Assembly (NCBI GenBank): GCA_964649555.1
Contig: CAZYQA010000001.1
Coordinates: forward strand, 1-40,149
DNA: 40,149 nt
Source of the DNA: an uncultured Muribaculaceae bacterium
GTDB taxonomy: Bacteria; Bacteroidota; Bacteroidia; Bacteroidales; UBA932
Direction: 5' to 3'
Part shown: piece by piece, positions 31,404-39,598 of the stretch
Numbering within the stretch: the stretch's first letter is position 1
Layout of the letters: each line of letters opens with the position of its first letter
Program-made: the position numbers and the translations under genes
Notes under the pieces: model-generated
What the model was told of the DNA's origin: nothing
Databases searched by the model: none
The model's input: the letters and a program-made list of their open reading frames with translations, nothing else

Positions 31404-31424
31404 ATGTTCGTAATTTTGCGAACA
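31404..31424 (+). promoter_or_regulatory. Operator-like palindrome, site 1 (ATGTTCGTA-N6-CGAAC), overlapping a TAnnTTTG -7 box; putative arsR promoter/operator
   Basis: ATGTTCGTAATTTTGCGAACA. The inverted repeat is GTTCG-N8-CGAAC and the embedded box is TAATTTTG (31411-31418). A TTTG lies 20 nt upstream, and ATG 31444 lies 20 nt downstream. Confidence 0.6.
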
Positions 31425-31443: not shown

Positions 31444-31767
31444 ATGGCTAAAAAGAAATATACACAACAAGAGGAGCAGTTGGCACGTTTCGCAAAAGCG
31501 TTAGGTCATCCTGCACGTATTGTTATATTGAAATTCTTAGCTGCGCAAGATAGTTGCTTTTTTGGCGACATACACGAGGTGCTGCCTATTGCTAAGGCTA
31601 CTGTGTCACAACACTTGACGGAATTGAAAAATGCAGGATTGATTCAAGGTGAGATTCAACCACCAAAGGTAAGATATTGCATTAATCTTGAGAATTGGAT
31701 GTTAGCAAAATCTCTATTTTCTGAGTTTTTGAAAGAAGATAAGACACATAAAGGTTGTTGTAAGTAA
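31444..31767 (+). CDS. arsR: ArsR/SmtB family metalloregulatory repressor
   Basis: 107 aa. Winged-HTH pattern LARFAKALGHPARIVILKFL....SCFFGDI.EVLPIAKATVSQHL.ELKNAGLI. Cysteines at positions 38, 79, 105 and 106 (C-terminal GCCK). Confidence 0.85.
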   Translation: MAKKKYTQQEEQLARFAKALGHPARIVILKFLAAQDSCFFGDIHEVLPIAKATVSQHLTELKNAGLIQGEIQPPKVRYCINLENWMLAKSLFSEFLKEDKTHKGCCK

Positions 31768-31786: not shown

Positions 31787-31807
31787 ATGTTCGTAGTTTT
31801 GCGAACT
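31787..31807 (+). promoter_or_regulatory. Operator-like palindrome, site 2, overlapping a TAnnTTTG -7 box
   Basis: ATGTTCGTAGTTTTGCGAACT with embedded TAGTTTTG (31794-31801). Lies between arsR and the Trx-like gene, about 60 nt upstream of ATG 31868. Confidence 0.55.
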
Positions 31808-31867
31808 ACAAACAACAAAAAGGAGTGATTTATATTGAATTATAATAATTTAAATAAGAACAAAACA

Positions 31868-32101
31868 ATGGAAATTAAAGTATTGGGAACTGGCTGTGCA
31901 AGTTGCAAGGCTCTCCATGAAACAGTTAAGCAAGCAGTCGCAGAATTGGGTATTGAGGCTACAGTAATCAAAGAAGAAGATTTGATGCAGATTATGAACT
32001 ACAACGTTATGTCAATGCCGGGATTAGTAATTGACGAAAAAGTAGTTTCGGCAGGTAAGAAACTATCTGTTGCAGATGTAAAATCATTATTAACCAAATA
32101 A
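31868..32101 (+). CDS. Small thioredoxin-fold protein (TM0996/MTH895 glutaredoxin-like, redox-active disulfide protein type)
   Basis: 77 aa from ATG 31868. Reads MEIKVLGTGCASCKAL... with a CxxC near the N-terminus and a MSMPGLVIDEKVV.(S)G segment. This family is commonly linked to ArsR and DUF318 permease genes. Confidence 0.75.
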   Translation: MEIKVLGTGCASCKALHETVKQAVAELGIEATVIKEEDLMQIMNYNVMSMPGLVIDEKVVSAGKKLSVADVKSLLTK

Positions 32102-32111
32102 ACTATCTACA

Positions 32112-32546
32112 ATGAAAAAGATATTATTTGCTTTGATAGCTATCCTAACTCTATCTTCTTGTGGCAATAGCCAAAATGCAAATGCTCAATCTTCTGCAAA
32201 ATCTACACAGAAAGATATTATAGAGGTTCTATATTTTCATGGCAAACAACGATGCATCACTTGTAATGCCATCGAAAAACTAACAAAAGAGGTTGTAGAA
32301 AAAGATTTTGCCGAGCAAGTCAAAGATGGTAAAATAGTATTTAAGGTTATAGACATTTCAACAAAAGAGGGCGAAAAGGTAGCAGATAAATACGAGGTTA
32401 CTTGGTCGTCGCTGTTTATTAATAAATGGAAGGACGGAAAAGAGTCTAAAAACAATATGACTGATTTTGGTTTCTCTTACGCAAAAAACTCACCAGACGT
32501 TTTCAAAGCAGGAGTAAAGAAAAAGATTGATGAACTTCTTAAATAA
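32112..32546 (+). CDS. Thioredoxin-fold lipoprotein with CxxC motif (CITC)
   Basis: 144 aa. Has a lipobox (LSSC), then EVLYFHGKQRCITCNAIE.... Confidence 0.6.
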   Translation: MKKILFALIAILTLSSCGNSQNANAQSSAKSTQKDIIEVLYFHGKQRCITCNAIEKLTKEVVEKDFAEQVKDGKIVFKVIDISTKEGEKVADKYEVTWSSLFINKWKDGKESKNNMTDFGFSYAKNSPDVFKAGVKKKIDELLK

Positions 32547-32554
32547 TTTGGTTC

Positions 32555-33265
32555 ATGGAGTTTTTACAATCTCTTTTAGAAAATAGCAATATGCCGATTG
32601 TAACGGCTTTTCTGCTTGGAATTTTAACCGCAATAAGTCCGTGTCCATTAGCTACTAATATCACGGCAATAGGATATATAAGCAAAGAGTGCGGAGCCGC
32701 ACGGGCAATTTTTTGGAGGGGCATACTCTATACGGTTGGTCGTGTTATCACCTATACAGTCTTAGGATTTATCATTATCCCGATTTTACGAGAGGGTGCG
32801 AGTGTGTTTGCTTTGCAGAAAGTAATCTCTAAATATGGTGAGATGCTGATAGCTCCTGCTCTGATTTTAATTGGACTATTTATGCTTTTTGGAAGCAAAC
32901 TAAACTTACCTAAATTTGGATTTAGCGGTAATGGAAGCGATAAGCTAAAACAAAAAGGAAGTTGGGGAGCATTGATGCTTGGTGTATTGTTTTCATTAGC
33001 ATTCTGTCCTACAAGCGGCGTATTCTACTTTGGAATGTTGATGCCGATGTCGGCAGCAGAAACGGGTGGTTATCTATTGCCTGTTGTTTTTGCTATTGCT
33101 ACGGGATTGCCCGTTATTATAGTTGCTTGGATATTGGCATATAGCGTAGCCGGACTGGGTAAATTCTATAACCGCATACAAGTATTTCAAAAATGGTTCT
33201 CAAAGATAGTTGCTATTCTATTTATTGCAGTGGGTATTTATTACGCAATCATGTTTTATCTATAA
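32555..33265 (+). CDS. CcdA/DsbD-family transmembrane thiol:disulfide electron-transfer protein
   Basis: 236 aa with about 6 TM helices. One Cys sits in each of two helices next to Pro (AISPCPLA and LAFCPTSG), as in CcdA-type transporters. Confidence 0.7.
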   Translation: MEFLQSLLENSNMPIVTAFLLGILTAISPCPLATNITAIGYISKECGAARAIFWRGILYTVGRVITYTVLGFIIIPILREGASVFALQKVISKYGEMLIAPALILIGLFMLFGSKLNLPKFGFSGNGSDKLKQKGSWGALMLGVLFSLAFCPTSGVFYFGMLMPMSAAETGGYLLPVVFAIATGLPVIIVAWILAYSVAGLGKFYNRIQVFQKWFSKIVAILFIAVGIYYAIMFYL

Positions 33266-33277
33266 AAAATATCATAA

Positions 33278-33733
33278 ATGAAAGTATTGATTCTCTGTAC
33301 AGGTAACAGTTGTCGTAGTCAAATGGCACACGGTTTTTTACAATCGTTTGACAAGGATTTGATTGTTTGTTCGGCAGGAACAAAAGCGGCAGGAAAGCTC
33401 AACGAAGGAGCAGTAAAGGCGATGGCTGAGGTTGGTGTTGATATTTCGGAACACACTTCAGATTCGGTTGAAAAGTATCTTGGTGATCAGTGGGATTACG
33501 TGATTACAGTCTGTGGTGGAGCTAACGAGAGTTGTCCAACGTTCACAGGAGATGTAAAACACCGCATACATATCGGTTTTGACGATCCATCGCACGCCGA
33601 AGGAACACCCGAATTTATCGAGAGTGAGTTTCGTCGTGTAAGAGATGAGATTAAAAATCGTTTCTACGAATTTTATATCAAAGAGATTCGCAAACAAGAG
33701 TTACCAAAGTGTTCTTGTGGCGGTAACTGCTAA
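33278..33733 (+). CDS. arsC: Arsenate reductase, LMW-PTP/thioredoxin-coupled type, with a Cys-rich C-terminal extension
   Basis: 151 aa. Has the P-loop ILCTGNSCRSQMA and the second Cys pair VITVCGGANESCP. An extra tail ends ...PKCSCGGNC. Confidence 0.9.
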   Translation: MKVLILCTGNSCRSQMAHGFLQSFDKDLIVCSAGTKAAGKLNEGAVKAMAEVGVDISEHTSDSVEKYLGDQWDYVITVCGGANESCPTFTGDVKHRIHIGFDDPSHAEGTPEFIESEFRRVRDEIKNRFYEFYIKEIRKQELPKCSCGGNC

Positions 33734-33745
33734 TCAATTATAAGT

Positions 33746-34789
33746 ATGGAAAAGAAACAAGGCATAGGCTTTTTTGAACGATACCTGACGATTTGGGTAG
33801 CTCTGTGTATCGTTGTGGGAATTGGCATAGGTCAATACATCCCTATTATACCCGATACGTTAAGTAAATTTGAGTATGCTAACGTGTCGATACCTGTAGC
33901 AATACTGATTTGGTTGATGATCTATCCGATGATGCTTAAAGTCGATTTTCAGAGTGTGAAAAATGTAGGAAAGCGACCCAAAGGCATTATGATAACCTGT
34001 GTTACCAATTGGTTGATTAAGCCTTTTACGATGTTTGGTATTGCGTGGTTATTCTTTTTTGTGATTTTCAAAGCATTGATTCCTGCGGATTTGGCAAATG
34101 AATACCTGGCAGGTGCGGTACTACTTGGTGCAGCTCCATGTACGGCGATGGTCTTTGTGTGGAGTTATCTAACAAAAGGAGATGCCGCTTATACACTTGT
34201 GCAGGTTGCCGTAAATGACTTGATTATCCTTGTGGCATTTGCCCCTATTGTAGCATTCTTGTTGGGCGTTGGTGGTGTAACGATTCCTTGGGACACGTTA
34301 TTGCTATCAGTTGTGCTGTTTGTGGTAATTCCGCTATCGGCAGGTGTACTGACTCGCGCGTCGATAGTAAAACGCAAAGGTATAGAGTACTTCAATAATG
34401 TATTTGTGAAGAAGTTTGACAATTTCACAATTGGTGGACTGCTTTTGACATTGGTGATTTTGTTCTCGTTTCAGGGGGAAACAATACTCAATAATCCACT
34501 ACACATTCTTTTGATAGCTGTACCACTGATAATCCAAACAGTAATGATTTTCTTTGTTGCCTATGGTTGGTCTAAAGCGGCAAAATTACCTCACAATATA
34601 GCTGCTCCGGCAGGAATGATTGGTGCGAGTAACTTCTTTGAGTTGGCGGTTGCCGTTGCCATATCACTGTTCGGTCTGCAGTCGGGAGCTGCACTTGCTA
34701 CGGTGGTAGGTGTATTGGTTGAAGTTCCTGTTATGTTAATGTTGGTTCGTATCGCAAACAATACACACAGGTGGTTCCCTGCAAAGTAA
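33746..34789 (+). CDS. acr3: ACR3 family arsenite efflux transporter
   Basis: 347 aa, polytopic. Reads [23 protein letters not shown], and P...[14 protein letters not shown]. Confidence 0.9.
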
Positions 34790-34817
34790 GTCAAATCTTA
34801 AAACAATAATAAATAGT

Positions 34818-35567
34818 ATGAAATCATTAAAAACAATTTTAATGCTATTAGCAGTGTCGTTTTCTGTAATGAGTTGTTCTGCACAAAAGAGTAATGATAC
34901 AGTAAAGGAACAATTAGCTAAGGCAAAGGAGAAAGAAAATACCGTATTCATGGTAGTAACGGATAGTAAAACACCTGCTGATAAGCTAACCCAACTTATA
35001 ACGGAAGCTACGCAAGAGTTATCGCAAACACAAATTATCCAAATGAACGCAGACGATGAAAAGAATGCTGAATTGGTTAAAGAGTATAGACTTAGTGGAG
35101 CACCGATGCCACTTGTACTTCTTTTCTCAAATAAAGGATTAATGTTGGGCGGAATGATGGAAGAACAAGTAACAAAAGAAAATATTGTTAATGCTATTCC
35201 TACTCCTAAATATAGCGAAATTACGTTTGCACTAAGTCAAGGAAAACCTGTATTGGCGATTGTCTCAAACAGTAAATTCAAAAACGATAAAGCGGCAAAA
35301 GAAGTTTGTAATACAGCAAATAAGGAGATGAACGATAAAGCCGAAATAATTGTGATTGACACCGAAGATGCCAAAGAGAGTAAGTTGATAGAGATGCTTA
35401 ATATTAAAGTGAAATTAGAGGATAGCTTTATAGTAGCCATTAACGGACAAGGAATTATGTCTGGACGCTTCGATGTTATACCAACGAAGGAAGATTTAAT
35501 CGCTGCAGCAACAAAAGTAGTACAAAGTGGTTGTGCTCCGGGTGGCTGTGGACCGACTTGTGATTAG
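34818..35567 (+). CDS. Hypothetical lipoprotein: two tandem thioredoxin-fold-like repeats without CxxC, plus a Cys-rich C-terminal tail
   Basis: 249 aa. Has a lipobox (VMSC). An internal duplication is visible (ENTVFMVVTDSK... versus GKPVLAIVSNSK...). The tail is SGCAPGGCGPTCD. Confidence 0.5.
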   Translation: MKSLKTILMLLAVSFSVMSCSAQKSNDTVKEQLAKAKEKENTVFMVVTDSKTPADKLTQLITEATQELSQTQIIQMNADDEKNAELVKEYRLSGAPMPLVLLFSNKGLMLGGMMEEQVTKENIVNAIPTPKYSEITFALSQGKPVLAIVSNSKFKNDKAAKEVCNTANKEMNDKAEIIVIDTEDAKESKLIEMLNIKVKLEDSFIVAINGQGIMSGRFDVIPTKEDLIAAATKVVQSGCAPGGCGPTCD

Positions 35568-35612: not shown

Positions 35613-35633
35613 ATGTTCGTATAAATACGAACT
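35613..35633 (+). promoter_or_regulatory. Operator-like palindrome, site 3
   Basis: ATGTTCGTATAAATACGAACT. Here the palindrome extends to GTTCGTAT-AA-ATACGAAC. It ends 16 nt upstream of ATG 35650. Confidence 0.55.
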
Positions 35634-35649
35634 AAATAATAATAAAAAC

Positions 35650-36153
35650 ATGAGTAAAAAAAGAATTATTGGAACAACGTCAGTAGGAATACTATCTTCG
35701 ATACTGGCATTTTTAGGGGTGGTTTCATGTTGCGGACTACCCATCATAGCCGGAGCATTAGCTTGGCTTGGAATCGGAGCTTCACAACTTAGCTTCTTTG
35801 CAGAATATCGTCCGATATTTATCGGCATTGCCATTGTTGCCCTTCTATTTGGATTTTGGCAAGTCTATTTCAAAAAGAAATCTTCTTGTTGTTCTACAAC
35901 CTCTTGTTGCGGAACTCCGAGCGAAGAAGAAAAACCATCAAAATCAAATCTATTTCAAAAGATTTTTTTGTGGATAGGAGCAATCGTAATTGTATTGATG
36001 CTTATTCTGGGAGAACAGAATGCTCCCGCAGAGCAACAAAACAATCCCCTATCACCTCAAATTCAGTTGCAGAACAGCTCTTCAGGTTGTTGTCCTTCTG
36101 AACCTGTACAAGAAACAAAAAAAGAACAATCGGGTTGTTGCCCTCAACAATAA
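35650..36153 (+). CDS. MerT-family-like membrane protein with extra Cys-rich loop and tail
   Basis: 167 aa. TM1 has a vicinal CC (VVSCCGLPIIAGAL). AEYRPIFIGIAIVALLFGFWQVY parallels the MerT EPYRPLFIGAALVAL... segment. The cytoplasmic loop reads SCCSTTSCCG. A third TM helix is present, and the tail carries SSGCCPSE and SGCCPQQ. Confidence 0.65.
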   Translation: MSKKRIIGTTSVGILSSILAFLGVVSCCGLPIIAGALAWLGIGASQLSFFAEYRPIFIGIAIVALLFGFWQVYFKKKSSCCSTTSCCGTPSEEEKPSKSNLFQKIFLWIGAIVIVLMLILGEQNAPAEQQNNPLSPQIQLQNSSSGCCPSEPVQETKKEQSGCCPQQ

Positions 36154-36159
36154 AATAAA

Positions 36160-37071
36160 ATGAATACACTTTTAGATACATTACAGTATTTCGTGCTTAT
36201 CACGCTGGAGTTGATAGCACTCTTTATGCTCATTAGTGCCATCGTGGAGATTATATTGATGTATATTCCACAAGAGACGATCCGTAAAAAATTGTCGGGC
36301 AAAGGTATCACAGGAAATGTTTTAGGAGCTGTTTTTGGCTCACTAACTCCATTTTGTGCATGCTCTACAATTCCTATGACCGTAGGTTTCCTCAATGCAG
36401 GAGTGCCGTTTGGGTCAGTTATGTCGTTTCTTATCTCCTCTCCACTTCTAAACCCTATCATCATCGGAATGTTAGGTGCATTGGTTGGTGTGAAAGCCGC
36501 TATCATCTATTTCGCTATTGCGTTTGTCTGCTCGGTAGCATTTGGAATTATATTGGAAAAGATGGGCGGCATCAAGTATGTAAAAAACGTACGAGTTAAA
36601 CCAAGTTGTTGTTGTAACGGAGCTGCCGAAGAGGTGGTTGATAAACGAGCATTGCCATTTGGTCAAAAGGTGAAACTTGCATTTAAAGCTGCGTGGGATA
36701 GCCTACGTCCTATTATGGGTTATCTGCTTATTGGTGTTGCTCTTGGTGCAGGTATATATGGATATATGCCTGAAGATTTTGTAGTAAAAATTGCAGGAAG
36801 TGACAACTTGTTTGCAGTACCTATTGCGGCGATTTTAGGAGTTCCGCTTTATATTCGTGCCGAAACTGCTATTCCTATTGGTTTGGCTTTGATGGGTAAA
36901 GGTATGAGTATCGGGGCTGTTGTCGCATTGATTATCGGCGGTGCAGGTATGGCAATCCCTGAAATGACAATGCTCGCCAGCATTTTCAAGAAGAAACTTG
37001 TAGCAATGATTGTTATAACAATTTTCTTGACTGCGGTTATTGGAGGTTATTTGTTTAACGTATTACTATAA
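36160..37071 (+). CDS. DUF318/ArsP-type predicted permease
   Basis: 303 aa, polytopic. Reads SLTPFCACSTIPMTVGF and SSPLLNP, has a central loop with PSCCCNG, and its second half repeats the fold. Confidence 0.75.
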   Translation: MNTLLDTLQYFVLITLELIALFMLISAIVEIILMYIPQETIRKKLSGKGITGNVLGAVFGSLTPFCACSTIPMTVGFLNAGVPFGSVMSFLISSPLLNPIIIGMLGALVGVKAAIIYFAIAFVCSVAFGIILEKMGGIKYVKNVRVKPSCCCNGAAEEVVDKRALPFGQKVKLAFKAAWDSLRPIMGYLLIGVALGAGIYGYMPEDFVVKIAGSDNLFAVPIAAILGVPLYIRAETAIPIGLALMGKGMSIGAVVALIIGGAGMAIPEMTMLASIFKKKLVAMIVITIFLTAVIGGYLFNVLL

Positions 37072-37083
37072 AAATATAAAATC

Positions 37084-37266
37084 ATGGAAGATAAAAAGGA
37101 AAAGAAAGGTTTTTGGGCTTCATTATTCACCCCTAAATCATGCGATTGTTGTTGTGGTACTCAAATCGAAGAGGTCACAGAAGAGGATGCTCAACAAGTA
37201 GAGCAAGAAAAACAGGAAGATAAAAAAGAGGATAAACCGACCTGCGATTGTGGAGGTAATTGTTAA
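37084..37266 (+). CDS. 60-aa Cys-rich acidic peptide (candidate metal/metalloid-binding protein)
   Basis: MEDKKEKKGFWASLFTPKSCDCCCGTQIEE...KPTCDCGGNC. Eight Cys fall in two clusters separated by an E/Q/K-rich linker. The gene is packed between two permease genes. Confidence 0.5.
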   Translation: MEDKKEKKGFWASLFTPKSCDCCCGTQIEEVTEEDAQQVEQEKQEDKKEDKPTCDCGGNC

Positions 37267-37283
37267 TTGATTTAGAAAGTAAT

Positions 37284-38252
37284 ATGATACAAGATTTTGC
37301 CGATTGGTTGGTGTATGGGGTCTTTGGATTGGATGCCGCCTCACACCTTGGAGCAGCCGTAAACTTCTTCTTTTACGACACGATAAAGATTCTTATTCTG
37401 CTCTTTTTGATTAGTGCGATTATGGGAGTCGTAAATGCATACTTTCCTATCGACCGTCTACGCAATTTTCTAACAACACGTAAGTTGTACGGGTTTCAGT
37501 ACTTCTTTGCGGCTTTGTTTGGAGCGATAACTCCGTTTTGTAGTTGCTCGTCTATTCCTCTATTTATAGGATTTGTAAAGGGAGGTATTCCACTTGGAGT
37601 AACATTCGCATTTTTAATAACATCACCTCTTGTCAATGAGGTTGCAGTCGCTATGTTCTTGGGGACATTTGGACTTAAAGCTACGCTGATTTATGCAATT
37701 TCAGGTATTTTACTAGGAACTATTGGTGGTTTTATTCTCGAGAAATTCAAGTTAGATAAGTACTTGAGTCCTTGGGTTAAGCAAATACAGGCTCAATCTG
37801 AGGCTGAAACGGCAGAATGGGAAACTGCTCATATCCCTTTTATGAAACGACTACCAACAATCATTAAAGATGCGTGGGGAATTGTTCGTGGTGTGCTGTT
37901 GTATGTAATTATTGGTATTGGTATCGGTGCTGCTATGCATGGATTTGTGCCAGAAGGATTCTTCGAGACTTACCTTTCAACCGATAAATGGTATAGCGTT
38001 CCATTAGCTGTGATTCTTGCCGTTCCGATGTATGCCAATGCCGCAGGTATCGTTCCTGTGATTCAGGTGTTTGTTGCCAAAGGCGTACCACTGGGCACTG
38101 CCATCGCCTTTATGATGGGTGTTGTAGGGCTATCGCTACCGGAAGCAACATTGCTCAAAAAAGTAATGACTTGGCGTTTGATAGGGATATTCTTTGGGGT
38201 GGTAGCTCTGTTTATTATTCTTTCCGGATATCTGTTTAATATGATTCTGTAA
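37284..38252 (+). CDS. DUF318/ArsP-type predicted permease (paralog)
   Basis: 322 aa from ATG 37284 (MIQDFADWL...). Reads AITPFCSCSSIPLFIGF and TSPLVNE. The ORF-track start at 37260 is a TTG that overlaps the previous gene. Confidence 0.75.
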   Translation: MIQDFADWLVYGVFGLDAASHLGAAVNFFFYDTIKILILLFLISAIMGVVNAYFPIDRLRNFLTTRKLYGFQYFFAALFGAITPFCSCSSIPLFIGFVKGGIPLGVTFAFLITSPLVNEVAVAMFLGTFGLKATLIYAISGILLGTIGGFILEKFKLDKYLSPWVKQIQAQSEAETAEWETAHIPFMKRLPTIIKDAWGIVRGVLLYVIIGIGIGAAMHGFVPEGFFETYLSTDKWYSVPLAVILAVPMYANAAGIVPVIQVFVAKGVPLGTAIAFMMGVVGLSLPEATLLKKVMTWRLIGIFFGVVALFIILSGYLFNMIL

Positions 38253-38710
38253 TGAAAAAATACAAAGTATATATTCCGGTCGTACTAATTGCATTAATGT
38301 TCTTTTCGCTGATTATTTTCCGAAAAGATATGGTTAAATTTATATCTCAAAGTAAAATAGAGCAATTGGCAGTTTCCACGAAAGATAAGATAGCAGATAG
38401 TATTGCAAAGAGATATGACTACACTCAAAATGGCGAAAGCTATCAATATACTTTCCTCGAATTTGGTTCGACAGGTTGCCACGCCTGTCGCCAAATGGAG
38501 GGAGTAATGGAAGAGATAAAAACTAAATACATAGGAAAAGTCAAAGTTGTATTTATTAATCTTCGTGAACCTGAAAATAGGGATTTAGGAGACTACTATG
38601 GTATTGCAACGATACCAACACAAGTATTGTTAGATAAAACAGGAAAGGAATTTTTTCGACACGAAGGGTTTTATTCGGCTGAAGAATTATCTGAACATTT
38701 TAAAATATAA
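38252..38710 (+). CDS. Membrane-anchored thioredoxin family protein
   Basis: 152 aa. Has an N-terminal TM helix, then FLEFGSTGCHACRQMEGVM (CxxC) and a TIPTQVLLDKTGKE thioredoxin-fold segment. Its start overlaps the permease stop (TAATG). Confidence 0.8.
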   Translation: MKKYKVYIPVVLIALMFFSLIIFRKDMVKFISQSKIEQLAVSTKDKIADSIAKRYDYTQNGESYQYTFLEFGSTGCHACRQMEGVMEEIKTKYIGKVKVVFINLREPENRDLGDYYGIATIPTQVLLDKTGKEFFRHEGFYSAEELSEHFKI

Positions 38711-38758: not shown

Positions 38759-39598
38759 ATGATGTGCAAAGAAACAGAAATAGAGTGTTCATTTGTATAT
38801 AGTCACTACAATGTAGGTGATATTAGAAGTTGTAAAAAGTCTGACTTTCACGTATTGGTATTTTGCATTAGCGGACATGTTAAAGTATTGGACAATCTAT
38901 TCCCAGAAGAATATTTATGTGCAGGTGAAATTTTGTTTGTGCCACGTGGAAGAGATTATAAAACATTAGCTTTAAGCGACTCTATCCTTTTGATTCATTG
39001 TTTTTCTAATACGGTGTGTAAAATAGAGAACTGTATATTATCATTTCTTTATACGCATAAGCAGATTTGCACTGACACAAGAAAACCATATTATTTTAGT
39101 AAGTTGCCGACATGTGAGCAACTTTCACATCTTTTAGATGGTATTGGTAGTTACATCTCTGATGAAAAATATGAGCCGAAGTTGTGGGCTATGAAGCATA
39201 AGGAGTTAATGTGGCTCTTTACGAAATATTACTCACATGAAGAACTACAACTCTTCTTTCATCCAATGATCGATGAGCAGATACCATTCAAAAGTTTAGT
39301 GTTGGCACACTATCGCAAAGCGGAATACACCGATAAGTTAGCCGAGATGTGCGGCTATCCGTTATATACGTTTCGCCGAATTTTTAAAGCTGAATTTGGC
39401 ATTTCTCCCCACAGATGGCTCACAATGAAACGAGCGGAGCTTATTCAATATCGTCTATCGCTACACTATATTCCATTTTTGGATATTATAGAAGAGTTTA
39501 ATTTCTCTTCTCCTCAGCAATTCAACCGTTTCTGTAAAGAAAATTTAGGGGATTCACCAACTGCTCTACGCAAAAAGGCTCTTAGAAAGAAATTATGA
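38759..39598 (+). CDS. AraC family transcriptional regulator
   Basis: 279 aa. The N-terminal region looks cupin-like. The C-terminal double HTH reads LAEMCGYPLYTFRRIFKAEFGISPHRWL...FSSPQQFNRFCKENLGDSPTALR. Confidence 0.85.
   Translation: MMCKETEIECSFVYSHYNVGDIRSCKKSDFHVLVFCISGHVKVLDNLFPEEYLCAGEILFVPRGRDYKTLALSDSILLIHCFSNTVCKIENCILSFLYTHKQICTDTRKPYYFSKLPTCEQLSHLLDGIGSYISDEKYEPKLWAMKHKELMWLFTKYYSHEELQLFFHPMIDEQIPFKSLVLAHYRKAEYTDKLAEMCGYPLYTFRRIFKAEFGISPHRWLTMKRAELIQYRLSLHYIPFLDIIEEFNFSSPQQFNRFCKENLGDSPTALRKKALRKKL

Follow-up and report, generated by a model that had tools for sequence, protein, structure and literature searches.

In the first 40,149 nucleotides (nt) of contig CAZYQA010000001.1 (assembly GCA_964649555.1, an uncultured Muribaculaceae bacterium; this stretch is referred to below as the window), an arsenic resistance (ars) island is followed by five genes that encode a MerT-like membrane protein (MerTL), two ArsP_1/DUF318 permeases (Perm1 and Perm2), a 60-amino acid (aa) Cys-rich peptide and a membrane-anchored thioredoxin. 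On balance, our analysis favors the view that these genes form a second, separately operator-controlled transcription unit of the island, in which MerTL, Perm1 and the peptide are a core that works together. We hold with high confidence that the module is an accessory unit of the ars island under ArsR, and we think it probable that MerTL and Perm1 act as one unit. The activity that we propose for them, efflux of trivalent arsenicals by thiol hand-off, has in our judgment slightly less than an even chance of being correct; for this function we infer both substrate and direction.

Five open reading frames (ORFs), all on the forward strand, were confirmed between positions 35650 and 38710, in the order MerTL, Perm1, peptide, Perm2 and thioredoxin. 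An original prediction, made by reading the DNA without database searches, had described them as tightly packed, with two short gaps followed by two overlaps. The gaps (6 nt between MerTL and Perm1, 12 nt between Perm1 and the peptide gene) and the 1-nt overlap of the Perm2 and thioredoxin genes are as described, but the overlap of the peptide gene with Perm2 rests on a TTG codon at 37260, from which the Perm2 frame is open for 330 aa. Because the orthologues of Perm2, among them a paralogue of this genome whose start lies 3 nt past an arsC stop codon, use the equivalent of an ATG at 37284 (322 aa, beginning MIQDFADW), this spacing is better given as a 17-nt gap. The prediction had also stated that the module has no classical ars partner, which is not the case: arsC and acr3 lie less than 1 kb upstream of MerTL on the same strand, behind one lipoprotein gene and under the same type of operator, within a series that reads arsR, arsE-like, arsF-like, arsG, arsC, acr3 and lipoprotein gene. 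The remaining gene assignments of the prediction agree with the family searches described below, including a MerT-like protein with a CC pair in its first transmembrane helix (TM1) and extra pairs in loop and tail, two paralogous DUF318 permeases with TPFC(A/S)CS motifs, a genuine Cys-rich peptide, a TM-anchored CxxC thioredoxin and the absence of merA.

MerTL scores 40.2 bits against the Pfam MerT model (PF02411; cut-off 32.9), over profile positions 7-105 of 116. It has the structural hallmarks of MerT, namely three hydrophobic segments, a CC pair in TM1 and cysteines in the loop between TM2 and TM3, but it falls short of the NCBIfam MerT equivalog (NF010314; 46.3 bits, cut-off 150) and stands outside a mer context. 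All 10 of its cysteines are in vicinal pairs, one in TM1 (27/28), two in a lysine-rich loop past TM2 (80/81 and 86/87), and two in an acidic tail (147/148 and 163/164). By the positive-inside rule, the N-terminus and the loop pairs are predicted to be cytoplasmic, and the tail pairs periplasmic. The TM1 motif CCG(L/M)P and the segment GIGASQLSFF are invariant in an alignment of 20 homologues. At 90% identity the homologues form 115 clusters, all of them unnamed or "hypothetical", and every organism name given is that of a member of the Bacteroidota. A profile search of 1.84 billion representatives produced approximately 43 close members, one of which is a 486-aa fusion, before scores drop to more distant matches that are presumably general MerT relatives. 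No MerA above the cut-off was found in the 87%-complete genome (best score 321 bits vs 454), and neither merR nor merP is among the annotated neighbours of the module, a statement that rests on annotation, as no family search was aimed at these two genes.

Both permeases are full-length matches to Pfam ArsP_1 (PF03773; 188 bits for Perm1 and 212 bits for Perm2, cut-off 32.3). They are only 32% identical, and thus old paralogues. The CxC motif is kept in all aligned Perm1 sequences, and the CCC motif of Perm1 sits in a positively charged central loop. Judged by charge, the first loop (+4) and the central loop (+10, with CCC) are likely to be cytoplasmic, whereas the N-terminus of the permease would lie outside in the fusion proteins described below, which have an acidic linker, consistent with the topology of MerT. 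We rejected an identity of Perm1 or Perm2 as SO_0444-type Cu/Zn exporters: Perm1 scores 103 bits against SO_0444 and 101 bits against SaoE, and Perm2 scores 79 and 122 bits, all far under the respective cut-offs of 300 and 325, and a genuine family member is encoded on another contig of this genome (G000 contig C145, L052:10-1670; 400 bits vs 300). The latter has a PLCSCG motif and a CC loop, adjoins an AraC-type regulator with an N-terminal CxxC (HMA-like) segment, and is, among the ArsP_1 proteins of this genome, the metal paralogue.

The ORF of the Cys-rich peptide is, judging by its conservation, a real gene. Both of its ends persist in other loci, including in a 66-aa form from Bacteroides fragilis: KKGFWASLFxPKSCDCCCGTQIEE at the N-terminus and TCDCGGNC at the C-terminus. 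The peptide has no hydrophobic segment and is, for that reason, presumably cytoplasmic; no family match was found for it in Pfam or NCBIfam. The anchored, TlpA/ResA-like thioredoxin has a single hydrophobic segment (residues 3-29), matches the Pfam models Thioredoxin_2 (40.9 bits vs 27) and Thioredoxin (35.5 bits vs 23.5), and carries its CxxC at Cys76/Cys79. No NCBIfam equivalog claims it, and its thioredoxin domain is predicted to be periplasmic. Cys-rich tags recur on other proteins of the island, cytoplasmic and periplasmic alike: a C-terminal extension of ArsC ends in CSCGGNC, which is near-identical to the CDCGGNC of the peptide, ArsR ends in GCCK, and the lipoprotein ends in GCAPGGCGPTCD. 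Such tails on ArsR, ArsC and the lipoprotein fit a protein-based thiol buffer.

The window contains exactly three GTTCG-N8-CGAAC sites, and none occurred in 100 shuffles; the ArsR-type operator that had been proposed 5' of the module is one of them (site 3, palindrome GTTCGTATAAATACGAAC at 35615-35632). Upstream of this site, the intergenic region between the lipoprotein gene and MerTL contains a hairpin and has a predicted folding energy of -20.6 kcal/mol. An AGCCA..TGGCT hairpin, with compensatory changes, is found at the same place in six related loci (L010, L013, L014, L016, L017 and L031), and transcription of the first ars unit probably stops or is attenuated at this element. In L010-L017 and L031 (nine fetched loci, with about six distinct sequences), a TGTTCG-N8-CGAA(C/T) site begins 31-44 nt 5' of the MerTL ATG, always preceded by the hairpin. 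A different arrangement is seen in seven loci (L018, L023, L025, L028, L029, L030 and L053), where a dedicated 100-aa repressor, ArsR2, is encoded just 5' of MerTL. Unlike the main ArsR, ArsR2 has no C-terminal CC; its CYCGD aligns with the classical As(III) site, which we take to be the CVC of R773 ArsR. The operators in these loci read ATCG-N8-CGAT, with one before arsR2 and one about 15-45 nt before MerTL. Repressor and half-sites change together: loci with the C-terminal-CC ArsR have TTCG..CGAA, and those with ArsR2 have ATCG..CGAT. Such co-variation is good evidence for real repressor-operator pairs and supports direct control of MerTL-Perm1 by the ArsR family. The spacers follow a common pattern in both ArsR lineages, those of arsR-proximal sites being TAnnTTTG-like and those of MerTL-proximal sites TATA(A/T)ATA. 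TAnnTTTG is the consensus of the Bacteroides -7 box, and the spacer of site 1 (TAATTTTG) matches it. On these grounds ArsR appears to control the MerTL unit. In B. fragilis, the start of MerTL overlaps the stop codon of acr3; eight then-annotated genes of the ars operon of this species are As(III)-inducible by quantitative PCR, MerTL not being among the genes assayed (PMC10223770).

To place the module among its relatives, gene neighbourhoods were taken from public assemblies and from one genome per species, and annotated by BLASTP against the window proteins. MerTL occurs at approximately 34 distinct loci, nearly all of them in Bacteroidales. Perm1 follows within 62 nt in 17 loci, counting the window, and stands behind the peptide gene in one more (L025). 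After the pair, the gene of the Cys-rich peptide is usually next. Four MerTL::Perm1 fusion proteins of 464-489 aa were found (one in Muribaculaceae, two in Rikenellaceae and one in an unassigned member of the Bacteroidales). Each is encoded directly 3' of arsR or with a small ferredoxin-like gene in between, and none has the periplasmic CC tail of MerTL. These natural fusions argue for one transport unit, and they undercut the contrast that had been drawn between an importer-type shuttle and exporter-type permeases. The ferredoxin-like gene is of the 2Fe-2S, NuoG N-terminal type and is Cys-rich (L037:2933-3250 and L040:2104-2454); it occupies the slot taken by the Cys-rich peptide in other loci. 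Three loci from Marinifilaceae (L043, L044 and L045), in which a SigZ-like sigma factor gene lies between MerTL and Perm1, keep the pair without recognisable ars genes, so the pairing itself is a conserved unit. The sigma factor is of the SigZ-type extracytoplasmic function group and has a Cys-rich C-terminus (L043:10496-11068); no ArsR is encoded nearby, and in these loci another kind of control, possibly one that senses thiols, may act on the pair.

Outside Marinifilaceae, nearly all loci follow the scheme arsR-arsE-arsF-arsG-arsD-arsA-arsC-acr3-(lipoprotein)-MerTL-Perm1-peptide-(Perm2)-(thioredoxin). A survey of gene order had been suggested as a check on the module: the exact five-gene order of the window is found in two other metagenome contigs (L014 and L015), and the core is found in many other loci. 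The idea of one indivisible five-gene system has to be given up, as Perm2 and the thioredoxin also occur in other ars operons on their own. Perm2 is missing from L013 and L016, and the unit ends at the peptide in B. fragilis and B. xylanisolvens; Perm2-type genes stand elsewhere in ars operons, beside arsE or arsC, and the anchored thioredoxin follows acr3, the peptide or MerTL in other loci. Because these two genes assort independently, we describe the module as a conserved core of MerTL, Perm1 and peptide with two accessories. The broader proposal is supported as a reading of the sequence: a module with an ArsR-type operator that relies on cysteines to transport a soft metalloid.

A tree of the ArsP_1 proteins of these loci has Perm1, Perm2 and "long ArsP" clades. 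The fusions are one clade within Perm1 (100/99 support), and the permeases of the Marinifilaceae pairs also fall in the Perm1 clade. One Perm1 sequence without MerTL nests among the MerTL-linked ones, which points to secondary loss of MerTL. A Perm2-type permease of 322 aa, close to the Perm2 of the window (tree path 0.1 changes per column), is encoded in a second ars operon of the same genome (contig C50, L051:159-3343), together with arsR, an arsE-like gene, arsG and arsC. The ArsF-like slot of this operon has no ORF of at least 70 aa, and neither acr3 nor arsB was found in it, which leaves the Perm2-type ArsP as its only candidate arsenite exporter. Two further arrangements concern MerTL itself. 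In Proteiniphilum and Dysgonomonas (L021:7669-10531 and L024:7471-10516), it comes last, behind a second arsD-arsA pair, and Perm1 is absent; MerTL might also be a membrane partner of ArsA. In Bacteroides neonati (L031:10001-11440), MerTL and Perm1 are each split into two to three ORFs by frameshifts or stops, with upstream ars genes that look intact; by this evidence the unit is decaying in that locus.

We propose that trivalent arsenicals would be captured as thiolates on cytoplasmic Cys clusters, namely those of the peptide, the two loop CC pairs of MerTL and the CCC loop of Perm1. Ligand exchange would then pass the arsenical to the TM1 CC pair of MerTL and the CxC site of the permease, and it would finally be released outside the cell. 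MAs(III) and aromatic As(III) compounds are the candidate substrates, to which As(III) or Sb(III) may perhaps be added. In this scheme MerTL would be the membrane hand-off partner of the permease, Perm2 could be a second ars-type exporter that occurs independently, and the anchored thioredoxin probably keeps the periplasm-exposed cysteines of the MerTL and lipoprotein tails reduced. We infer the order of the hand-off, its substrate and direction, and the role of the thioredoxin. Acr3 nearly always coexists with the MerTL/Perm1 pair, either in the same island or elsewhere in the genome (G076), which weakly favors a non-redundant substrate such as organoarsenicals. A more specific and more tentative suggestion is that an ArsP-family permease has gained a MerT-fold protein as a dedicated subunit, present in one clade as a fused domain, with the intramembrane CC and the cytoplasmic CC repeats creating a three- or four-thiolate site. 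We regard this as possible rather than probable. Were it true, MerTL would be the first MerT-family member in arsenic efflux instead of mercury uptake, and a new ars gene that is widespread in human-gut Bacteroides; the two-thiol, MAs(III)-specific mechanism of ArsP could then widen to three-coordinate As(III)/Sb(III) or to other gut arsenic species.

In an AlphaFold2 model of a natural MerTL::Perm1 fusion (pTM 0.63), the permease part is predicted with a pLDDT of about 80, and the CxC motif sits at a break between two short helices. In a Foldseek search of the PDB with this model, no hit had an E-value below 0.27, and the highest TM-score, about 0.3, was to VcINDY and CNT; PDB sequence searches with Perm1 and with the MerTL profile gave no match. 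By these searches the ArsP_1 fold is without a solved structural relative, which makes the natural fusion attractive for structure determination.

Several observations weigh against the hand-off account. The MerT part of the fusion model has a pLDDT below 58, and the model shows no confident MerT-permease interface. About nine MerTL loci are without Perm1, with MerTL standing, for example, after arsD-arsA or beside a thioredoxin gene, and one chromosomal type of ars operon among those sampled (L056 and L057) has Perm1 but neither MerTL nor acr3; as each occurs alone, neither is strictly dependent on the other. The spacer of site 3 (TATAAATA) does not have the -7-box-like TAnnTTTG that sites 1 and 2 have, so the promoter of the MerTL unit is unclear. 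Acr3 is already there for As(III), which leaves the extra benefit of the unit unexplained, and since MerT proper is an importer, the direction of transport is not readable from homology. A stricter version of the proposal, that MerTL is needed for Perm1 to carry As(III), is weakened by the one sampled operon type that combines arsC with Perm1 in the absence of both MerTL and acr3.

The module could instead work by mer-like import, with MerTL taking up a thiophilic species, either a trivalent arsenical or a thio-arsenical, from the periplasm; in the cytoplasm the peptide and Cys-rich tails would buffer it and Acr3, Perm1 or Perm2 would expel it, the gain being protection of the periplasm. MerTL is a true MerT homologue with its TM1 CC and cytoplasmic-loop CC in MerT-like positions, the periplasm-facing CCP motifs of its tail could stand in for MerP, and two further products of the island, the ArsF-like lipoprotein and the anchored thioredoxin, are periplasmic CxxC proteins. 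Yet uptake tied to immediate export would be futile, no cytoplasmic detoxifying enzyme is present to make import pay (arsC acts on As(V)), and in the fusions, which have no periplasmic CC tail, MerTL nevertheless stays joined to an exporter-family permease, all of which makes import unlikely. We would also be surprised if the unit handled another soft metal (Hg, Cd, Cu, Zn, Sb or Te) and merely travelled in ars islands, even though MerT relatives move Hg, a CDF/HMA gene is present in some of these islands, and the nearest named NCBIfam subfamilies of ArsP_1 are the SO_0444 Cu/Zn exporters and SaoE. Even the best permease scores against those two models are far from their cut-offs, the genome has a genuine SO_0444 exporter elsewhere and no MerA that we could find, and, outside Marinifilaceae, the unit is under ArsR-type repressors with As(III)-type Cys patterns and is nearly always in an ars operon.

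The Cys pairs of MerTL, which lie on both faces of the membrane and inside TM1, might also serve a transmembrane thiol-disulfide relay, in which MerTL and the anchored thioredoxin would bring reducing power to the periplasm in the manner of CcdA or DsbD, with no substrate conduit. One locus (L020) has MerTL directly followed by the anchored thioredoxin, the latter with its own operator, and the 2Fe-2S ferredoxin-like gene adjoins the fusions. However, vicinal CC pairs typically serve as soft-metal ligands and make poor redox couples, the island already has a DsbD_2-type ArsG, and MerTL is most often partnered by the permease and not by the thioredoxin, with the fusions again having no periplasmic Cys tail; a relay is accordingly improbable. 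That the five genes are a mosaic of unrelated cargo without functional coupling, and the palindrome a mere remnant, is very hard to reconcile with a MerTL-Perm1 adjacency, fusions and an upstream operator that are conserved across Bacteroidales families, with divergent sequence and co-varying operators. Such a mosaic would suit the independent assortment of Perm2 and the thioredoxin, and a mobile-element island subject to deletions (arsD and arsA have been lost in the window), but we give it scarcely any credence.

Table 1. Features of the ars island and of the MerTL module, with positions in the window
Feature	Position	Strand	Basis or remarks
Operator site 1, 5' of arsR	31406-31423	.	GTTCG-N8-CGAAC; spacer TAATTTTG
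ArsR/SmtB repressor; one Cys in helix 3, C-terminal GCCK	31444-31767	+	NCBIfam HTH_metalloreg 56.2 bits vs 55; alignment
Operator site 2, between arsR and arsE-like gene	31789-31806	.	GTTCG-N8-CGAAC
First ars unit: arsE-like mini-thioredoxin, arsF-like lipoprotein, arsG, arsC, acr3, lipoprotein	31835-35567	+	NCBIfam scores
arsG, DsbD_2-type membrane protein	32555-33265	+	NCBIfam ArsG 292.5 bits vs 200
arsC, thioredoxin-type	33278-33733	+	
acr3	33746-34789	+	NCBIfam 398 bits vs 282.8
Lipoprotein with Cys-rich tail	34818-35567	+	
Hairpin, 10-bp stem TTTAGCCACA / TGTGGCTAAA, 6-nt loop	35575-35600	+	Just 3' of lipoprotein stop codon
Operator site 3, 17 nt 5' of MerTL start codon	35613-35633	.	ATGTTCGTATAAATACGAACT; core GTTCG-N8-CGAAC
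MerTL, MerT-family three-TM Cys-rich membrane protein, 167 aa	35650-36153	+	Pfam MerT
Perm1-type ArsP_1/DUF318 permease, 303 aa; TPFCACS, CCC in central loop	36160-37071	+	Pfam ArsP_1 188 bits
Acidic peptide, 60 aa, 7 Cys, no hydrophobic segment	37084-37266	+	Both termini conserved across loci
Perm2-type ArsP_1 permease, 322 aa from ATG; TPFCSCS	37284-38252	+	Pfam ArsP_1 212 bits
Thioredoxin with N-terminal TM anchor, CxxC (GCHAC), 152 aa	38252-38710	+	Pfam models

The family matches of the first ars unit include ArsE (108.5 bits vs 62) and, for the upstream lipoprotein, ArsF (128.7 bits vs 60). Tandem integrase genes adjoin the island, which is probably carried on a small integrative element in this Muribaculaceae gut bacterium. 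The island is without arsD and arsA (33265-33278), both of which stand between arsG and arsC in most relatives. A different deletion, in which a truncated arsG is joined to an arsA remnant, is seen in L016 (6699-7384), and the arsG-arsC part of the island is prone to deletions. Downstream of the thioredoxin gene, an AraC-family regulator is encoded at 38759-39598, with a 51%-identical one at the same place in L016; because RteC occupies this position in most relatives, the regulator is probably a gene of the mobile element and not of the ars module.

Among commensals, those chiefly exposed to arsenic are the Bacteroidales of the gut, whose ars islands move with mobile elements. The MerTL/Perm1 pair is very common in them, its B. 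fragilis form being indexed in more than 1,200 blocks of a public assembly collection, yet annotation gives the two proteins just as "hypothetical protein" and "permease". Should the two indeed work as a thiol hand-off efflux unit, the ars toolbox would gain a new component, and the fold of a mercury transporter would prove to have been reused for arsenic. Such a unit would also provide a handle on how trivalent arsenicals are delivered to pumps in bacteria without glutathione, which, to our knowledge, bacteria of this kind lack.

The window shares with the ars operons of Bacteroides a common backbone of arsR, arsE-like, arsF-like, arsG/DsbD_2, arsC and acr3 under ArsR. The operon of B. vulgatus ATCC 8482, as Li, Mandal and Rosen are said to have described it in Anaerobe in 2016, reportedly consists of arsR, three unknown genes and arsDABC. 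Published accounts of such operons end at arsB/acr3, and our search of the literature found no paper on a MerT-ArsP pairing or fusion, or on a MerT-like gene, a Cys-rich peptide or a second internal operator in Bacteroides ars operons. ArsP-family permeases and thioredoxin-like genes are already recognised as ars-operon accessories, since Castillo and Saier (2010) reported ars operons with CcdA, thioredoxin, redox-active disulfide protein 2 and ArsP (PMC2963123). The ArsP of Campylobacter jejuni (TCDB 2.A.119; reportedly described by Chen et al. in Mol Microbiol, 2015) is an exporter driven by the proton-motive force that acts on MAs(III) and Rox(III), not As(III) (PMC6205960). Perm1 and Perm2 have in common with it the Pfam ArsP_1 family, a conserved Cys pair in a TM motif and the ars-operon context; C. 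jejuni ArsP works alone, whereas Perm1 is partnered by, or fused to, a MerT-like protein and contains an additional CCC loop.

The SAO locus saoTECXLBPAD (Haft and Gwadz, bioRxiv 10.1101/2022.07.06.499078) is a nine-gene set with a MerB-like SaoL and a SaoA/B/P/X ABC importer. It resembles the window, as do SO_0444 systems, in placing an ArsP_1 exporter with a C-S/A-C motif beside a thioredoxin-like protein and in having CC motifs on several proteins; the window differs in having no SaoL, no ABC importer and no selenocysteine. Membership in the SAO system was rejected, as all genes from arsR to the AraC regulator are assigned to other families, with no SaoL or ABC component among them, and the SaoE scores are far under the cut-off. 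With the MerT of mer operons, MerTL shares three TM helices, the TM1 CC, the cysteines of the cytoplasmic TM2-TM3 loop and an (E/P)YRPIFIG segment; it differs in its sub-threshold equivalog score, the extra loop CC pairs, the periplasmic tail and the ars context under ArsR, and represents a small subfamily that is confined to Bacteroidota among the records that name an organism. In concept, the mechanism that we propose is the same as the ArsD-ArsA-ArsB/Acr3 hand-off, in which a Cys-rich protein passes As(III) to an efflux pump by ligand exchange. The window encodes no ATPase, arsD and arsA being absent, and a membrane partner with the MerT fold, together with the 60-aa peptide, would here take the place of soluble ArsD.

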